Positions 11,184-31,851 of a DNA stretch of 64,000 nucleotides are shown piece after piece; position 1 is the stretch's first letter, and each line of letters opens with the position of its first letter. Location of the stretch: positions 1,696,001 to 1,760,000 of the forward strand of contig OZ240219.1 of NCBI GenBank assembly GCA_965197645.1. The letters are read 5' to 3'. Below the pieces are notes generated by a model. That model saw only the letters and a program-made list of their open reading frames with translations, searched no databases and was not told the origin of the DNA. The DNA is from Dehalococcoidia bacterium (GTDB lineage: Bacteria > Chloroflexota > Dehalococcoidia > Plut-88900). Both the position numbers and the translations under genes were made by a program.

Positions 11184-13601
11184 TTGTTCTCTATTCTCAG
11201 ACTGTTAAGGTATTTGCCGAAGGGCAACGCCCTTCGATTGCTGATAGTAGGCGTGATCTTCGTCCTGGGGCTCATGGCCTTGGCGTTCAACGACCTTTCC
11301 CCCTTTGGCATCGACCGGCAGGGGTTCAGGCAAGGGCTGGACATACAGGGCGGGAGCCACCTGGTGTACGAGGCCCGAGCCGACGAGGACGGGGATATCA
11401 ACGTTACACAAGCCCAGATGGAGGGAGTTGCCAGAATCATCCGCAGGCGGGTGGATGCCTTCGGAGTCGCAGAGCCCATAGTGCAGCGGGTCGGCGACCA
11501 TCGGATCATGGTCCAGATTCCCGGAGTAAGGGACGTGGAGAGGGCCAAGAAGCTGATCGGCGCCACGGCCCAACTGGACTTCCGGGAGCAGAGACTTCGA
11601 GAAGACGGCACCCCCGTTATCGATCTGAACGGGAGCATAATCTGGGACCCGGCCATGGGCACCGGTCGCAGCGGGCAGGCGGTGCACCTGACGGGTCAGT
11701 TCATGCTGCCCAACTCCCAGGTGATCGTTGATCCCACGACGAACCTGCCCAACGTGGCGTTTCAGCTCAATGGCGATGGAGCCAGGCTCTTCGAGCAGAT
11801 CACCGAAAGGCTTCTCGGCCAGCCCCTGGGAATCTTCCTGGACGATCTCTTGATTTCCGCTCCCACCGTTCAAGCGGTAATCCGTGAAAACGGTGTGATT
11901 AGCAACCTCAGCTTGGACGAGGCGGAAGACCTGTCCATTGAGCTTAACGCAGGCGCCCTGCCCATACCAATAGAGCTCATCCGGGAGCAGGACGTGGACG
12001 CTACGCTGGGGCAGGAATCGGTGGACAAGAGCATGGTGGCCGCGGTGATTGGCCTGCTGGCCGTGTTGGTCTTCATGATGCTCTACTACCGTCTGCCCGG
12101 AGCGTTGGCGGCGTGCGCCCTGGTGATTTACGGCATCGTGGTGCTTTGCTCCTTCAAGCTGATACCCGTCACCCTGACCCTATCGGGTCTCGCAGGGTTC
12201 ATACTCTCCATCGGTATGGCGGTGGACGCAAACATCCTGATATTCGAACGTCTGAAAGAGGAGCTCAGGTCCGGAAGAAGTTTGAGAGCCGCCGTCGAGG
12301 CCGGATTCAACCGTGCCTGGCCGGCTATCCGAGACAGCAACGTGTCCACCCTGCTGACCTGCGGCATCCTGTTTTGGTTCGGCGATAAGCTGGGTACCCC
12401 GCTGGTGACCGGGTTCGCAGTGGCCCTTGCCATCGGTGTGGTTACCAGCATGTTTACGGCCATGTTCGTAACCCGCAGCTTCCTCCGGTTCTTCATCGGC
12501 CCCAACCTGGAGACCAAGCTGCATTACTTCAACGTGGACAGAAGAGTTCAAAACGATGAAGACCGAGAGGCAGCGCCGGCGGTCGGCAGGTTGGAGAACA
12601 CCCGGCTAAATCTGGTGGACCGGCGGATGTGGTACATCATTATCTCGGCGATAGTGATACTGCCCGGTTTGATGTCCCTGATCTTTCCACCGGCCTTCAA
12701 GCTCGGCATCGAGTTCTCCTCCGGCGCCACTATAGAGGTATCGTTCATCAATCCCCAGGACGTCGGGCTGCGGAGAGAAGCCCAGGTAACCACCTCGGCA
12801 ATCAGGGACGAGGTAGCCAACCTCGGGCACGGGGACGCCATCGTCCAGAAGCTGGGGTCCAACTCGTTCCTCATTCGAACGAAGGCACTGGCCTCCGGGG
12901 AGCTGGACGATCAGGGCAACGTGGGTCCATCAGAGAGCGAGATGATCAAGAATGCCCTGGAGAGGAGATACGGTCCAACCAGCATAGACAAATTCGAGAT
13001 ATCCTTCGTCTCGGCGATTGTAGCCGCGGAATCGGTGCGCAACGCGGGCATCGCAGTCCTCGTGGCTATATTGGGCATCTTCGTGTACATCGCCTACGCT
13101 TTTCGCAAGATGCCCCACTTCTTCCGGTATAGCTTCGCCGCAATCATCGCTCTCTTCCACGACGTGATCATCATCCTCGGGCTCTTCTCCATCTTGGGCA
13201 AAGTCATCGACATGGAGATCAGCACCATGTTCATCACCGGGCTGCTGGCGGTGATCGGCTACAGCATCAACGATACCATCGTAGTGCTGGACAGGGTGCG
13301 AGAGAACGTTCAGAACCGGGCGGGCGAGAGCTTCGAGCAGATAGTGAACAACAGTCTCCTGGAGACCATGGGCCGATCTATGAATACCAGTCTCACGACT
13401 GCGTTCATGCAGATATCTCTGCTGGTCATAGGCGGCGCCACGCTAAAGCCCTTCATCCTCGTCCTGTTTATCGGTACAATAGTCGGGACGTATAGCTCTA
13501 TCTTCATCGCTACGCAGCTGCTGGTTATCTGGGATAAGCAGGAGTTCGGGCAGCTGTGGCGCAGAGTGCAGGTCAGACTGGCCGGAGCCAGGGAAAACTA
13601 G
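11184..13601 (+). CDS. secDF: Fused protein translocase subunit SecDF
   Basis: SecD motifs GLDIQGG, GMAVDANILIFER; SecF motifs GIEFSSG, GYSINDTIVVLDRVRE in one ORF; start codon uncertain. Confidence 0.92.
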   Translation: MFSILRLLRYLPKGNALRLLIVGVIFVLGLMALAFNDLSPFGIDRQGFRQGLDIQGGSHLVYEARADEDGDINVTQAQMEGVARIIRRRVDAFGVAEPIVQRVGDHRIMVQIPGVRDVERAKKLIGATAQLDFREQRLREDGTPVIDLNGSIIWDPAMGTGRSGQAVHLTGQFMLPNSQVIVDPTTNLPNVAFQLNGDGARLFEQITERLLGQPLGIFLDDLLISAPTVQAVIRENGVISNLSLDEAEDLSIELNAGALPIPIELIREQDVDATLGQESVDKSMVAAVIGLLAVLVFMMLYYRLPGALAACALVIYGIVVLCSFKLIPVTLTLSGLAGFILSIGMAVDANILIFERLKEELRSGRSLRAAVEAGFNRAWPAIRDSNVSTLLTCGILFWFGDKLGTPLVTGFAVALAIGVVTSMFTAMFVTRSFLRFFIGPNLETKLHYFNVDRRVQNDEDREAAPAVGRLENTRLNLVDRRMWYIIISAIVILPGLMSLIFPPAFKLGIEFSSGATIEVSFINPQDVGLRREAQVTTSAIRDEVANLGHGDAIVQKLGSNSFLIRTKALASGELDDQGNVGPSESEMIKNALERRYGPTSIDKFEISFVSAIVAAESVRNAGIAVLVAILGIFVYIAYAFRKMPHFFRYSFAAIIALFHDVIIILGLFSILGKVIDMEISTMFITGLLAVIGYSINDTIVVLDRVRENVQNRAGESFEQIVNNSLLETMGRSMNTSLTTAFMQISLLVIGGATLKPFILVLFIGTIVGTYSSIFIATQLLVIWDKQEFGQLWRRVQVRLAGAREN

Positions 13602-13611
13602 GGGGTAGGAA

Positions 13612-14487
13612 ATGAGAGAGAAGCTGATTCCGCTGGAGCAGGTCAGCAAGCTGGTCCGGGACGGAGACCAGGTGCTGATGATGGGCGGCATGGAGTTCAC
13701 GCCCATGGCCGTCCTGAGAGAGATAGTCAGAGCCGGGGTCAAGGACCTCCACACCGTCGGAGTGGTAGGCGGGGCCATGAACCTGGACTTCCTCATCGGG
13801 GCCGGCGTCACAAACACCGTCGAAACCTGCGACCTGAGCCTGCCCCCGTATGCTCGGGTGGCTCCCAACTACCTGCGATACCAGAAGGCCGGCCGGGTCA
13901 AGATGAAGGACAACACCTGAGGGATCATGTACAGCATGGTCCAGGCTGGATCAATGGGAGTCCCCTTCGTGCCCACCCTTGGATACGCGGGCACCGACAT
14001 CCTTGAGCGTAGAGAGGACTTCAAGGTGATTCCACACCCCTTCGCGGAGGGTGAACGGATTGTGGTCGCCGAAGCCATTACCCCGGACGTGGCCCTCTTC
14101 CACGGCCCCAGGGCCGACAGGTTCGGGAATGTCCTGGCCGCGAATACGGGAGAGGCGCTGACACTGGCGCTGGCCTCCCGCAAGGTCATAGTCTCCGTCG
14201 AAGAGATTGTTGACGAGGTATCACCTCACGACCACGCCGGAGAGTACATACCCGCCCTGAACGTTACCGCGGTGGTGCATGCTCCCTTTGGGGCGCACCC
14301 CACCGGATGTCCCGGTTTCTACGAAGAAGACGTGGCCCACGTACAAGAGTACGTGGAGGCCTCGGCCTCCGACGATGCCTTCTCCGGGTACTTGGAGAGA
14401 TACGTCTTCGGCCCCGGGAGCCACGACTCTTATCTTGATAGGGTCGAGTTGAAGACCGAGGAGAAGGTGCCGGGACCGGTAGGTTAG
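13612..14487 (+). CDS. Family I CoA-transferase-fold alpha subunit (GctA/IpdA-like), probable selenoprotein with in-frame TGA at 13918-13920 (residue 103 of 291)
   Basis: ORFs 13612-13920 and 13927-14487 are in the same frame, joined by TGA-GGG-ATC; together they give one full-length alpha subunit (VRDGD, PDVALFH..RADRFGN, VSVEEIV, APFGAHPT). Confidence 0.8.
13921..13965 (+). promoter_or_regulatory. Putative bacterial SECIS hairpin
   Basis: CAGC 13932-35 pairs GCTG 13945-48; inner TG/CA closes a GUC loop 19 nt after the UGA; GATC/GATC or GGGA/TCCC lower stems. Confidence 0.5.
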
Positions 14488-15233
14488 TGTCCACTACCGG
14501 CGCCGACTGCAAACTGGAAGAGTACCTAGCGGTCCTCCTGTCGCGGGAGGTGCGGGACTTCGAGACCTCCGCCTGTGGAGCGCTCTCCTTCATACCGGCG
14601 GCCGGCCTGATCCTCGCCGAGTCTACTCACGCCTCTCACGGGGAGTACATCATCCTCGGCAGCCCGGCTTACCAGCCCTTCGCCTCTCCCAAAGACTTCC
14701 ACTACTTGGCCCAACGCGGGCAGATGGACCTGTTCTTCATCGGGGCAATCGAGATCGATAAGAGGGCGAATTTCAACCTCCACCTGATCGGTGACCCCGA
14801 CGAGCCGGATGTCCGGATGCCCGGCGGATACGGTACGGGCCTGCTTTACTACGCCGTGCCTCGCATCGTGCTGTTCCGTACCAAGCACGACAGGCGGACG
14901 TTCGTGGAAGAGGTCAATTTCGTGTCGGGGGCCGGCACGTCCCCCGAGGGGATAGCCAGGCGAAACCGAGAGGTCAGGGTGATCACACCGATGTCGATTA
15001 TGGAGCTGGACACGGAGACCCGTCTGCTAAAGCTGGTCTCGATACATGCCGGATACACCCTGGACGACGTTCAGGCAAACACTGGATTCGATCTGGGAGT
15101 GGACGGCGAAGCTCCGGTGACGCCTCCACCGACGAACGAGGAACTGACGAGTCTTCGTACCGTAGCGAAGCAGCGGATGATCGAGAGCGATACCTACGCC
15201 GATCTGGCCAGGTCTCTGATCAGAGAGCCCTAG
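14487..15233 (+). CDS. Family I CoA-transferase-fold beta subunit (GctB/IpdB-like)
   Basis: GAIEIDKRANFN, RMPGGYG, RTFVEEVNFVS, VQANTGFDL; GTG start overlaps alpha stop. Confidence 0.85.
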   Translation: MSTTGADCKLEEYLAVLLSREVRDFETSACGALSFIPAAGLILAESTHASHGEYIILGSPAYQPFASPKDFHYLAQRGQMDLFFIGAIEIDKRANFNLHLIGDPDEPDVRMPGGYGTGLLYYAVPRIVLFRTKHDRRTFVEEVNFVSGAGTSPEGIARRNREVRVITPMSIMELDTETRLLKLVSIHAGYTLDDVQANTGFDLGVDGEAPVTPPPTNEELTSLRTVAKQRMIESDTYADLARSLIREP

Positions 15234-29988: not shown

Positions 29989-31851
29989 TTGTATGTCATA
30001 GGCACAGCGGGACACGTAGACCATGGGAAGTCGGCGCTGGTCCAGGCGCTGACCGGCATCGATCCGGACCGGCTCCAGGAGGAGAAGGAGCGGGGCCTGA
30101 CCATCGATCTCGGGTTTGCCTGGTTGACCCTGCCCAGCGGGCGTGAGGTCAGCATCGTCGACGTTCCAGGCCACGAGCGATTCATAAAGAACATGCTGGC
30201 CGGTGTGGGAAGCATAGACCTGGCCCTGCTGGTTGTTGCCGCCGACGAGGGGGTCATGCCCCAGACCCGGGAGCACCTGGCCATAGTCGATCTGCTCAGG
30301 ATCGACCGCCACCTGGTGGTGATTACAAAAAAGGACCTCGTGGAGGACGACTGGCTGGAGCTGGTTGAGGCCGATATCCAGGACGCCATCGAGGGGACGA
30401 GCCTGGAAGGGGCACAGATAATGGCGGTCTCGTCGATCACGGGAGACGGGCTGGACGACCTGGTGGCTGCCGTCGATGGCATGCTGCAAGAGGCGACCCC
30501 GAAGCAGGATATCGGCAGGCCGAGGCTGCCCATCGATCGCACGTTCACCATATCGGGATTCGGGACGGTGGTAACGGGTACGCTGATAGATGGCAAGCTG
30601 ACCGTCGGGCAGGAGGTCGAGGTCGTTCCGGGAGCGATAAAGAGCCGCATCCGGGGCATCCAGACCCACAAGAACAAGGTGGAGGTGGGGTCTCCGGGAT
30701 CGAGGGTGGCGGCCAACATATCGGGAGTGGGGCACGCGGAGATACGCAGGGGCCAGGTCCTCACTTCTCCCGGCTGGCTCAGAGAGAGCACCGCCGTTGA
30801 CGTTCGACTACGGATCATCCCGGATTGCCCCATCTCGATAAGACATAATGCCGCGGTGACCCTTCACATGGGCACCAGCGAGACGCCGGCCCTGGTGAGG
30901 CTGCTGGACTCGCAGGAGCTGGAGCCGGGCGCCGAGGGTTGGGCCCAGCTGCGGCTCCAGGACCCGATCGCCTTCATCAAGGGAGACCTGTTCATCATCC
31001 GGTCCCATCTGGGGACCCTGGGGGGCGGCGAGGTGGTAGAGACCCAGCCAAAACGGCACAAGCGTTTCCACGACAAGACCGTGGAGCGGCTGGAGGTGCT
31101 GGCTCAAGGTACTCCTGGGCAGGTGTTGATCAAAGTGCTGGAGTCCTCGGAGCCGCTTTCGGTGAAGAACCTCGTTCGAATAAGCACTCTCGCCGAGGAT
31201 ACGGCCAGGGAAGCCGTGCGGGCCCTGCACGAGGAGAAGGGGATAGTGGTGCTGGGAAAGGATGGACTCCAGGGCAATCCTCTCCTTTATTCCTATGCGG
31301 GGTGGCAGACTGTCAGGGAGAACAGTGAGGAGTACCTGCGGGGATACCACGAGCAGAACCCGCTGCGGCCGGGGGCGCCCAAGGAGGAGTTCCGCGGCAG
31401 GTTGAAGCTCTCGGCCCAGGCCTTCCCCCAGGTAATGGAGCGGCTGAAAGAGGAGGCAGTAGTCGTGGAAGAGGGTGCATCGGTGAGGCTACCCTCTCAC
31501 ACCCGGACGGTTAGCCAGGGCCAGCAGCAGGAGATAAACGCCTATCTGAAGGCGCTGGCCGGCAATCCCTTCTCGCCACCGACGGATATATCGATACTGC
31601 CGGAGCTGCTGTCAGGCCTGGTGGAGGAAGGCAAGGTGATCCGGGTCAGTGGAGACGTGGTCTTCGAGGCCGGTGCCTATCAGAAGATGGTCGACCAGGT
31701 GGTAGAGGAGGTGAGAGCGGAGGGCAAGGTGACAGTGGCGAGGGTAAGGGATATGTTCAAGACCAGTCGCAAGTACGCGCTGGCGTTTATGGAGTACCTG
31801 GACCAGGAAAAGATCACCCGTCGGGTCGGGGACGACAGAGTGCTGAGGTGA
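29989..31851 (+). CDS. selB: Selenocysteine-specific elongation factor
   Basis: [28 protein letters not shown]-terminal winged helices ending SRKYA..LEYLD..TRRVGD. Confidence 0.95.

Follow-up and report, generated by a model that had tools for sequence, protein, structure and literature searches.

What reaction is carried out by a two-subunit protein that has the fold of the coenzyme A (CoA) transferases, but that appears to carry a selenocysteine (Sec) in place of a residue with which its relatives handle their substrates? The question is raised by two adjacent genes, encoding an alpha and a beta subunit, in a stretch of 64,000 nucleotides from a Dehalococcoidia bacterium (GenBank assembly GCA_965197645.1, contig OZ240219.1, positions 1,696,001 to 1,760,000 of the forward strand; ‘the window’ means this whole stretch). 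An original prediction, made from the letters of the window, had assigned the pair to 13860..15233; the end of that interval stands but its start does not, as position 13860 lies inside the alpha gene, which begins at 13612. On the evidence assembled here, drawn from sequence comparison throughout, the pair appears to be an undescribed selenium enzyme that acts on CoA-bound acids. Its principal features are as follows.

13612..14487, forward strand: alpha subunit gene, almost certainly a selenoprotein, of the PF01144 (CoA_trans) fold; 291 codons in a single frame when TGA is read as Sec (U)
13918..13920, forward strand: the TGA codon of Sec103, in the motif DNT-U-G; relatives have a TGA in the same column
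13937..13953, forward strand: hairpin resembling a selenocysteine insertion sequence (SECIS), with a 7-bp stem and a GGC loop; identified by RNAalifold and by pairing counts
14487..15233, forward strand: beta subunit gene, 248 amino acids, GTG start; an open reading frame (ORF) with a PF01144 match and relatives in the PDB

The TGA codon of the alpha subunit

Under translation table 11 the alpha frame is split into 13612..13920 (102 amino acids) and 13927..14487 (186 amino acids); when TGA is read as Sec, it becomes one frame of 291 amino acids, of which the sole in-frame TGA encodes residue 103. A six-frame search of 61 related genomes yielded 41 places with a related sequence, 16 of which (the window’s own included) contain exactly one in-frame stop, always TGA. 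These TGA-bearing sequences are 37-100% identical to the window protein, and in a MAFFT alignment the residue-103 column holds the TGA in 16/16. A scan of contigs from one genome per species found 114 relatives, the best 80 of which were analysed, and all 80 have TGA in that column; they come from taxa that include Dehalococcoidia/SAR202, Betaproteobacteria/Burkholderiales, SAR324, Binatia, Lambdaproteobacteria and Methylomirabilota. A scan of metagenome contigs, seeded with homologues that carry cysteine at this position, returned a further set of 80 loci in which the column contains TGA (43), Cys (8), Glu (15), Val (2) or a gap with an adjacent Glu in the BLAST alignment (11), one locus being unaligned. 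Across the 139 loci of these three sets (16, 80 and 43, which are not strictly additive, since some genomes may recur between the first two) the stop at this column is always TGA and never TAA or TAG.

Most of the 43 metagenome TGA loci (L124-L161 and others) group into a second Sec subfamily, more remote than the first, whose motif is EYP-U-GALLRALQAGG. Its members are 35-39% identical to the window protein and have their TGA in the same column; in the five long loci examined (L124, L125, L129, L133 and L148) the 1.1 kb directly downstream contain no beta-like ORF.

Alignments obtained with tblastn span residues 1-291 and run through the TGA, with conservation on both flanks. In the protein database, 77 of the best 120 of 1136 matches are fragments of 169-206 amino acids that begin at a methionine just past the TGA, at positions that differ from one fragment to another. 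The other 43 clusters are full length, with Cys at the Sec column in 41 and Glu in two. In a quick maximum-likelihood tree, sequences with Sec and with Cys fall into a single clade (SH-aLRT 99), where they are interleaved and at least five switches between them are forced by the starred branches; homologues with Glu are basal in the non-canonical clade. All examined members of the Sec/Cys clade have one or the other of these two residues at the column.

For bacterial SECIS elements the usual rules concern the spacing from the UGA and a G in the loop. The first base of the hairpin at 13937-13953 lies 17 nt past the UGA, and RNAalifold returned this hairpin unprompted from 16 sequences. Among 80 distinct sequences its stem is paired in 96.4% of 560 cells, a figure that falls to 46% or less when the partner is slid by one to three columns. 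Three of the pairs are compensatory (UA in 45 and CG in 33 sequences; UA in 29, AU in 25, GC in four and CG in one; GU in 53, AU in 21 and CG in five). Because part of the stem overlies a conserved Q-A-G peptide, a control for coding constraint was run: 36 distinct non-Sec homologues form a mean of 3.89 of the seven pairs, with no perfect stem among them, as compared to a mean of 6.75 and 63 perfect stems among the 80 Sec sequences. Of the 80 Sec genes, 78 use GCT for the alanine encoded by the loop. In the EYP-U-G subfamily a 7-bp hairpin is likewise present, with its register slid by one base, and is perfect in 30 of 36 genes versus none of 22 non-Sec genes of the same set. An Rfam scan of 13850-14050 gave two matches at chance level and no SECIS family. 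A second hairpin, of 9 bp at 13921-13942 and thus directly after the UGA, was considered as the SECIS and set aside: it is the choice of the minimum-free-energy fold (68 nt, z-score 0.21), in which it competes with the conserved stem, but it occurs in this genome only and is not conserved in relatives.

The genome also encodes the machinery for Sec insertion. SelA (449 bits), SelD (379.7 bits; G000:C1:941844-942767, locus L036) and a tRNA-Sec with anticodon TCA (66.4 bits) are all present, and the gene for SelB lies about 16 kb downstream of alpha in the same window:

29995..31848, forward strand: selB; TIGR00475, 346.8 bits, above cut-off; genome position G000:C1:1725995-1727848, converted to window coordinates by offset subtraction

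The selD gene has one in-frame TGA of its own, and the selenophosphate synthetase is therefore itself probably a selenoprotein.

Might the TGA nonetheless be a stop, in a split gene or pseudogene, or be read as some other amino acid? Gene callers do split the alpha gene, as the 77 post-TGA fragments attest, and the minimum-free-energy fold of the window sequence favours the hairpin next to the UGA (z-score not significant). A stop, however, is difficult to reconcile with the exclusive use of TGA, with Cys at the column in homologues, with fragments that restart at different methionines, with the covariation of the hairpin and the conservation on both sides of the codon, or with a complete Sec machinery; moreover, TGA terminates 19 of the 53 window ORFs of at least 250 amino acids, and is thus not generally reassigned. 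Such alternatives appear extremely improbable, and the alpha subunit is almost certainly a genuine selenoprotein. UGA103 would be read as Sec by means of the hairpin 17 nt downstream and the genome’s own SelA, SelB, SelD and tRNA-Sec.

The probable active site of the alpha-beta pair

The alpha stop codon and the beta GTG start overlap by one nucleotide, and both subunits match PF01144 (alpha at 67.8 bits and beta at 49.5 bits, with a cut-off of 23). NCBIfam has no specific model for either; alpha has only sub-threshold matches to pcaI/atoD, and beta has none. In phmmer comparisons with PDB chains, alpha is closest to GctA (2.7e-33, 118.9 bits), followed by AibA (7e-23, 84.8 bits) and IpdA (5e-17, 65.6 bits), while beta matches IpdB (8.4e-13), AibB (2.3e-11) and GctB (1.8e-10). 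Homology and the overlapping genes indicate that the two subunits would form a heterodimer of the glutaconate CoA-transferase (GCT) fold. The genome’s only other PF01144-like alpha gene (locus L004, G000:C1:2075986-2079570) is of the canonical AtoD/SCOT type, with a PQG motif, and has beta-like ORFs on both sides (227 and 221 amino acids).

In GctB the catalytic residue is Glu54. The original prediction had found no counterpart in the window’s beta subunit, and this is borne out by the alignments; the motif that it gave for GctB-type subunits, ‘YESG’, reads ‘IVESG’ in 1poi_B. Two codons of the beta gene mark the region concerned.

14655..14657, forward strand: beta Leu57, in the canonical catalytic-Glu column (GctB Glu54, IpdB Gly57, AibB Cys56), from profile-to-PDB alignment
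14643..14645, forward strand: beta Glu53, an acidic residue four positions N-terminal of the canonical column, from the beta alignment

Residues 51-59 of the window beta read HGEYIILGS. A profile of 20 beta sequences gave full-length matches to GctB (1poi_B, 9.4e-59), IpdB and AibB, and in both the profile and alignment A3 a single column holds the Glu of GctB ‘IVESG’, the Gly of IpdB (RHA1), the V/A of the AibB Cys56 variants and Leu57. These anchors agree with the correspondences set out in passages of two papers, where Glu54beta of GCT corresponds to Gly57beta of RHA1 IpdAB (PMC5380842) and Cys56B of AibB replaces the catalytic Glu (PMC7756340). The column contains Leu in 84, Arg in four and Ile in two of 90 Sec-linked betas (150-400 amino acids), and Glu or Asp in none; in the three Cys-type loci that have a beta it is again Leu. 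Nor is the canonical position filled by another glutamate of beta, a possibility that had been left to be checked: the Glu of GEYIILGS lies four residues earlier. That -4 position is Glu in 73 and Asp in nine of the 90, with no acid in the group L015-L019, and the +1 position is Asp in 18 of the 90 and Gly in the window.

The state of this column can be set against that of residue 103 in alpha. Among 30 loci of the six-frame search, the beta Glu survives in five paralogues, all with His, Asn or Met at the Sec column, and alphas with Sec, Glu or Gly there are paired with a beta that lacks the catalytic Glu; an exception is metagenome locus L169, where the alpha has Cys and the beta retains its Glu. 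The canonical paralogues also have, after their Glu loop, some 28 residues (alignment A3, columns 68-95) that the Sec-linked betas lack. Elsewhere in beta, Tyr115 and its ‘PGGYG’ stretch stand in place of the ‘GSGGA’ motif of the canonical paralogues.

Where, then, does residue 103 lie? With high posterior probability, phmmer aligns it with position 117 of the IpdA (RHA1) chain, a residue that is E in 6co6_A but A in the variant 6coj_A, and that was therefore mutated by the crystallographers. We take this residue to be Glu105, which Crowe et al. (2018) reportedly proposed as the catalytic base. The same column holds Gln in GctA and Gly in AibA. An independent line comes from BLASTP against the canonical paralogue of this genome, in which Sec103 falls on the Gln of ‘NPQG’, part of a PQG motif that is conserved in SCOT and AtoD structures. 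By offset arithmetic, the Gln of this motif corresponds to residue 99 in pig SCOT; according to a passage of PMC12817287, Gln99 of SsSCOT equals Gln110 of TbASCT, and its side chain hydrogen-bonds to bound acetate or succinate beside the catalytic Glu. At this column, then, true transferases have Gln, IpdA-like proteins Glu, and the Sec103 family Sec or Cys; inside the clade that lacks the beta Glu, Sec, Cys and Glu alternate. In each of these three branches of the CoA-transferase-fold family the position would be part of the active site. The proposal that Sec stands at the catalytic position of IpdA, within the active site of a repurposed fold, is therefore upheld as far as homology can carry it, and Sec103 is very probably an active-site residue.

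One reading of these observations is that the pair still transfers CoA, through some other carboxylate (beta Glu53, or the Asp found after Leu57 in close relatives) or by an unconventional route, with Sec103 replacing the usual Gln and tuning substrate binding only. GctA is indeed the closest match of alpha, an acid is found at -4 in 82/90 betas and at +1 in 18/90, and the Sec column is that of the substrate-binding Gln in true transferases (PMC12817287, same passage). The canonical column, however, is acidic in 0/90; the -4 residue, which would lie on a strand, should occupy a different place; and the substitutes themselves are inconstant, the -4 acid being absent from L015-L019 and the +1 residue being Gly in the window. 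A separate family III CoA-transferase often adjoins the pair, and the characterised relatives that have lost the Glu, IpdAB and AibAB, are described in parts of PMC5380842 and PMC7756340 as non-transferases. A surviving transferase activity is thus very improbable. With the beta Glu lost, and Sec or Cys on the alpha side at an active-site column, the pair is probably not a canonical CoA-transferase; given what IpdAB and AibAB do, it would instead transform an acyl-CoA.

The pair can be compared with each characterised relative in turn. GctAB of Acidaminococcus fermentans (PDB 1POI) shares the two-subunit PF01144 architecture and offers the best sequence match to alpha, but has Glu54 where the window beta has Leu57, and Gln where alpha has Sec103. 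SCOT, AtoDA and ASCT (3OXO, 1K6D and 6LP1), whose PQG Gln occupies the Sec column, are true transferases with a SENG or ESG Glu, unlike the Sec-type pair; the paralogue at L004 is of this kind. Class I enzymes transfer CoA in a ping-pong mechanism, by way of a glutamyl-CoA thioester on the beta Glu. Of the marks of this class, the window pair has the two PF01144 subunits but neither the beta Glu (ESG/SENG) nor the substrate-binding Gln of alpha, Sec103 standing in its stead.

IpdAB, which opens the ring of COCHEA-CoA in steroid catabolism by a retro-Claisen hydrolysis (6CO6, 6CO9, 6COJ and 6CON), has the same fold, has likewise lost the beta Glu, and has the mutated residue of 6coj_A on alpha at the Sec103 column. 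It is a hydrolase with no CoA-transferase activity, as stated in a passage of PMC5380842. Its alpha residue, however, is Glu rather than Sec or Cys (among the homologues of the window protein, Glu appears only in more distant ones), IpdB has Gly57 where the window has Leu, alpha matches IpdA at only 65.6 bits, and the steroid gene neighbourhood of IpdAB has no equivalent around the Sec-type pair: the neighbours in the window are SecDF and a Leu dehydrogenase rather than ipdC, echA20, fadA6 and other steroid-catabolic genes, and no conserved steroid cluster is found at the 80 loci from the best of the 114 relatives.

AibA/AibB, the 3-methylglutaconyl-CoA decarboxylase of Myxococcus xanthus (5MZW-5N03), also has this fold, and AibA is the second-best PDB match of alpha. 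Its substrate is a dicarboxylyl-CoA, compatible with the carboxylate-type neighbours of Sec-type pairs. In AibAB, as passages of PMC7756340 relate, Cys56B replaces the catalytic Glu and is the proposed general acid, and yet is dispensable. Cys56B belongs to beta and fills the column of the lost Glu (Leu57 here), whereas the Sec or Cys of the present family is on alpha and invariant. Because the defining tests of the three groups (beta Glu, alpha Glu and beta Cys) all fail, the pair can be filed under none of class I, IpdAB or AibAB; it is a new variant among the repurposed enzymes of the GCT fold and, among selenoproteins, a new family.

Substrate and chemistry

The window itself offers few hints of a substrate. 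The gene upstream, on the same strand, encodes a SecDF fusion, whose stop precedes the alpha start by 10 nt (13601-13612), and a Glu/Leu/Phe/Val-type dehydrogenase gene lies downstream of beta on the opposite strand, in convergent orientation. Housekeeping genes form the surroundings in the window’s own lineage, and the gene order L19, PriA, deformylase, SecDF, alpha, beta is kept in L040-L044, which suggests constitutive co-transcription with housekeeping genes.

More can be learned from the relatives. Among the best 80 of the 114 relatives, beta follows alpha in 75 loci, and the remaining neighbours comprise TctC-type carboxylate receptors (35 loci), family III CoA-transferases (PF02515; 12), enoyl-CoA hydratases (9), MFS transporters (8), 2-hydroxyacid dehydrogenases (7) and ATP-grasp_5 proteins (6); apart from beta, none of the neighbours in these loci is universal. 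The best NCBIfam matches of the family III CoA-transferases are dicarboxylate transferases (succinate-glutarate and mesaconate), all below cut-off. One Cys-type locus, L120, has the order ABC transporter, alpha, beta, ORF of no assigned function, family III CoA-transferase, DinB_2. Taken together, the family III CoA-transferase and TctC neighbours suggest a dicarboxylyl-CoA substrate.

Several other recurrent features of these neighbourhoods were noted or discarded. A DinB_2 gene (YfiT-like thiol-transferase, below cut-off) is found near the pair in L047, L071 and L120, at loci of both the Sec and the Cys type. Genes for luciferase-like monooxygenases occur in L047 and L071, the latter of which also encodes a rhodanese. 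The ORFs of 200 and 229 amino acids, of no assigned function, beside the family III transferases of L120 and L071 are unrelated to each other. The recurrent ORF clusters c8, c14, c17, c19, c21 and c26-c29 have no Pfam match and are probably spurious frames.

These observations would best be accommodated by a reaction on the acyl moiety of an acyl-CoA. The substrate is likely to be a di- or tricarboxylyl-CoA, which in many relatives the neighbouring family III CoA-transferase would supply. The selenolate of Sec103 would attack an electrophilic carbon of the bound acyl group, either the thioester or beta-keto carbonyl or the beta-carbon of an enoyl-thioester, in a ‘thiolase-like’ or a ‘Michael-type’ mode. 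The resulting transient Se-acyl or Se-alkyl enzyme intermediate would then be resolved by hydrolysis, C-C cleavage or isomerisation; the acyl-selenoester of the original prediction is one version of this scheme. Sec that attacks carbon is known from glycine reductase (protein A/B) and from PrdB of D-proline reductase, in reactions that are reductive and in folds that are unrelated to this one. The likeness lies in Sec as a carbon-directed nucleophile; the difference is that no conserved partner linked to a reductant stands beside the Sec-type pair.

This account is graded by its parts. That Sec103 acts as a covalent nucleophile is tentative, with somewhat more doubt than confidence attached to it. 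The narrower proposition, in which Sec is a carbon-directed nucleophile in a non-redox acyl-CoA reaction (via an acyl-selenoester or Se-alkyl adduct), the Glu has been lost and the catalytic centre has shifted to the other subunit, is possible but decidedly doubtful. The explanation as a whole, namely a selenoprotein that is not a transferase and that uses Sec as a nucleophile on an acyl-CoA, falls just short of an even chance.

The sequence data agree equally well with an enzyme of the same class (an acyl-CoA lyase, hydrolase or isomerase that is no transferase) in which Sec103 is a general acid/base. Here Sec103 would protonate or deprotonate an enolate or dienolate, as proposed for AibAB Cys56B, or activate a water molecule, as proposed for IpdAB Glu105. 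Glu at the column in IpdA and in the basal non-canonical members suggests continuity of such a role, alpha scores higher with AibA (84.8 bits) than with IpdA, and the TctC genes at 35/80 loci, together with a family III transferase like those for succinate-glutarate or mesaconate, would suit a decarboxylase or isomerase acting on a dicarboxylyl-CoA. Against this role, Sec is a costly residue whose use is generally linked with nucleophilicity or redox chemistry. As a precedent within this fold, the general-acid Cys of AibAB (PMC7756340) is also inexact, since it lies on the beta lost-Glu column and is dispensable, whereas here the column has Leu and the Sec/Cys of alpha is invariant; in addition, a selenol of low pKa (5.2, from a passage of PMC13188914) makes a poor base. 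The acid/base role is on balance unlikely, although far from negligible.

A redox role has also to be weighed. In this case Sec103, lying next to the CoA thiol, would serve redox chemistry or chalcogen exchange and form an Se-S bond with CoA, CoA persulfide, disulfides or Cys73, and the pair would be a CoA-linked thiol/selenol oxidoreductase or a sulfur-transfer enzyme. In its favour are the redox function of the majority of selenoprotein families (portions of PMC13188914 and PMC9312934), the DinB_2/YfiT-like genes near the pair in L047, L071 and L120 with the rhodanese of L071, and the presence of Cys73 in 89% of 96 Sec alphas. The last figure, however, led to the rejection of Cys73 as a universal redox partner, and since GctA also has a Cys at that column the residue may be structural. 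No UxxC, CxxU or similar motif is found in the protein, no reductase, thioredoxin-like or flavoprotein partner is conserved beside the pair at the 80 loci, and related enzymes have Glu, a non-redox residue, at the Sec column. A redox function for the pair therefore seems improbable.

A number of points weigh against Sec103 as a nucleophile acting on an acyl-CoA. Most known selenoproteins are redox enzymes, as parts of PMC13188914 and PMC9312934 attest, so that the prior favours redox chemistry, and Cys73 could be a resolving thiol. From the dispensable Cys of AibAB it follows that the presence of a thiol in this fold does not by itself imply nucleophilic catalysis. The acid at -4 in 82/90 betas might still serve as a carboxylate catalyst. 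The placement of Sec103 depends upon alignment to solved relatives at about 25-30% identity, and the SCOT residue number upon an offset. The best score of alpha is with a true transferase, GctA (118.9 bits, as against 65.6 bits for IpdA), so that Sec may have arrived at the IpdA position by convergence. Finally, the neighbours in the window are housekeeping genes, and the clues to a substrate come from relatives only and are not universal (the family III transferase is found at 12/80).

Occurrence and meaning of the family

The Sec family is widespread, from SAR202/Dehalococcoidia of the ocean to Burkholderiales of freshwater and soil. Because gene callers truncate alpha (hence the 77 fragments among the best 120 clusters), it has been misannotated as a short ‘glutaconate CoA-transferase subunit A’, which affects many SAR202, Dehalococcoidia and Betaproteobacteria genomes. 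No published description of a PF01144 selenoprotein family was found in full-text literature searches. By term searches of their main texts, two reviews with selenoprotein tables (PMC13188914, 2026; PMC9312934, 2022), the GOS study (PMC2398784) and a preprint (10.1101/2022.07.06.499078) name no PF01144 or CoA-transferase selenoprotein, although their supplements could list one.

The fold of the family is ordinary, while its catalytic make-up is unusual, and its members may open or decarboxylate carboxyl-rich CoA esters. Since cultured Paenibacillus and Cohnella carry Cys orthologues, the function is directly testable without expression of a selenoprotein. If the reading advanced here is true, the pair would represent a third case, after IpdAB and AibAB, of a CoA-transferase fold rebuilt for another reaction, and would widen the known chemistry of biological selenium by placing Sec, in an acyl-CoA fold, at the site where its relatives have a substrate-binding Gln or a catalytic Glu.

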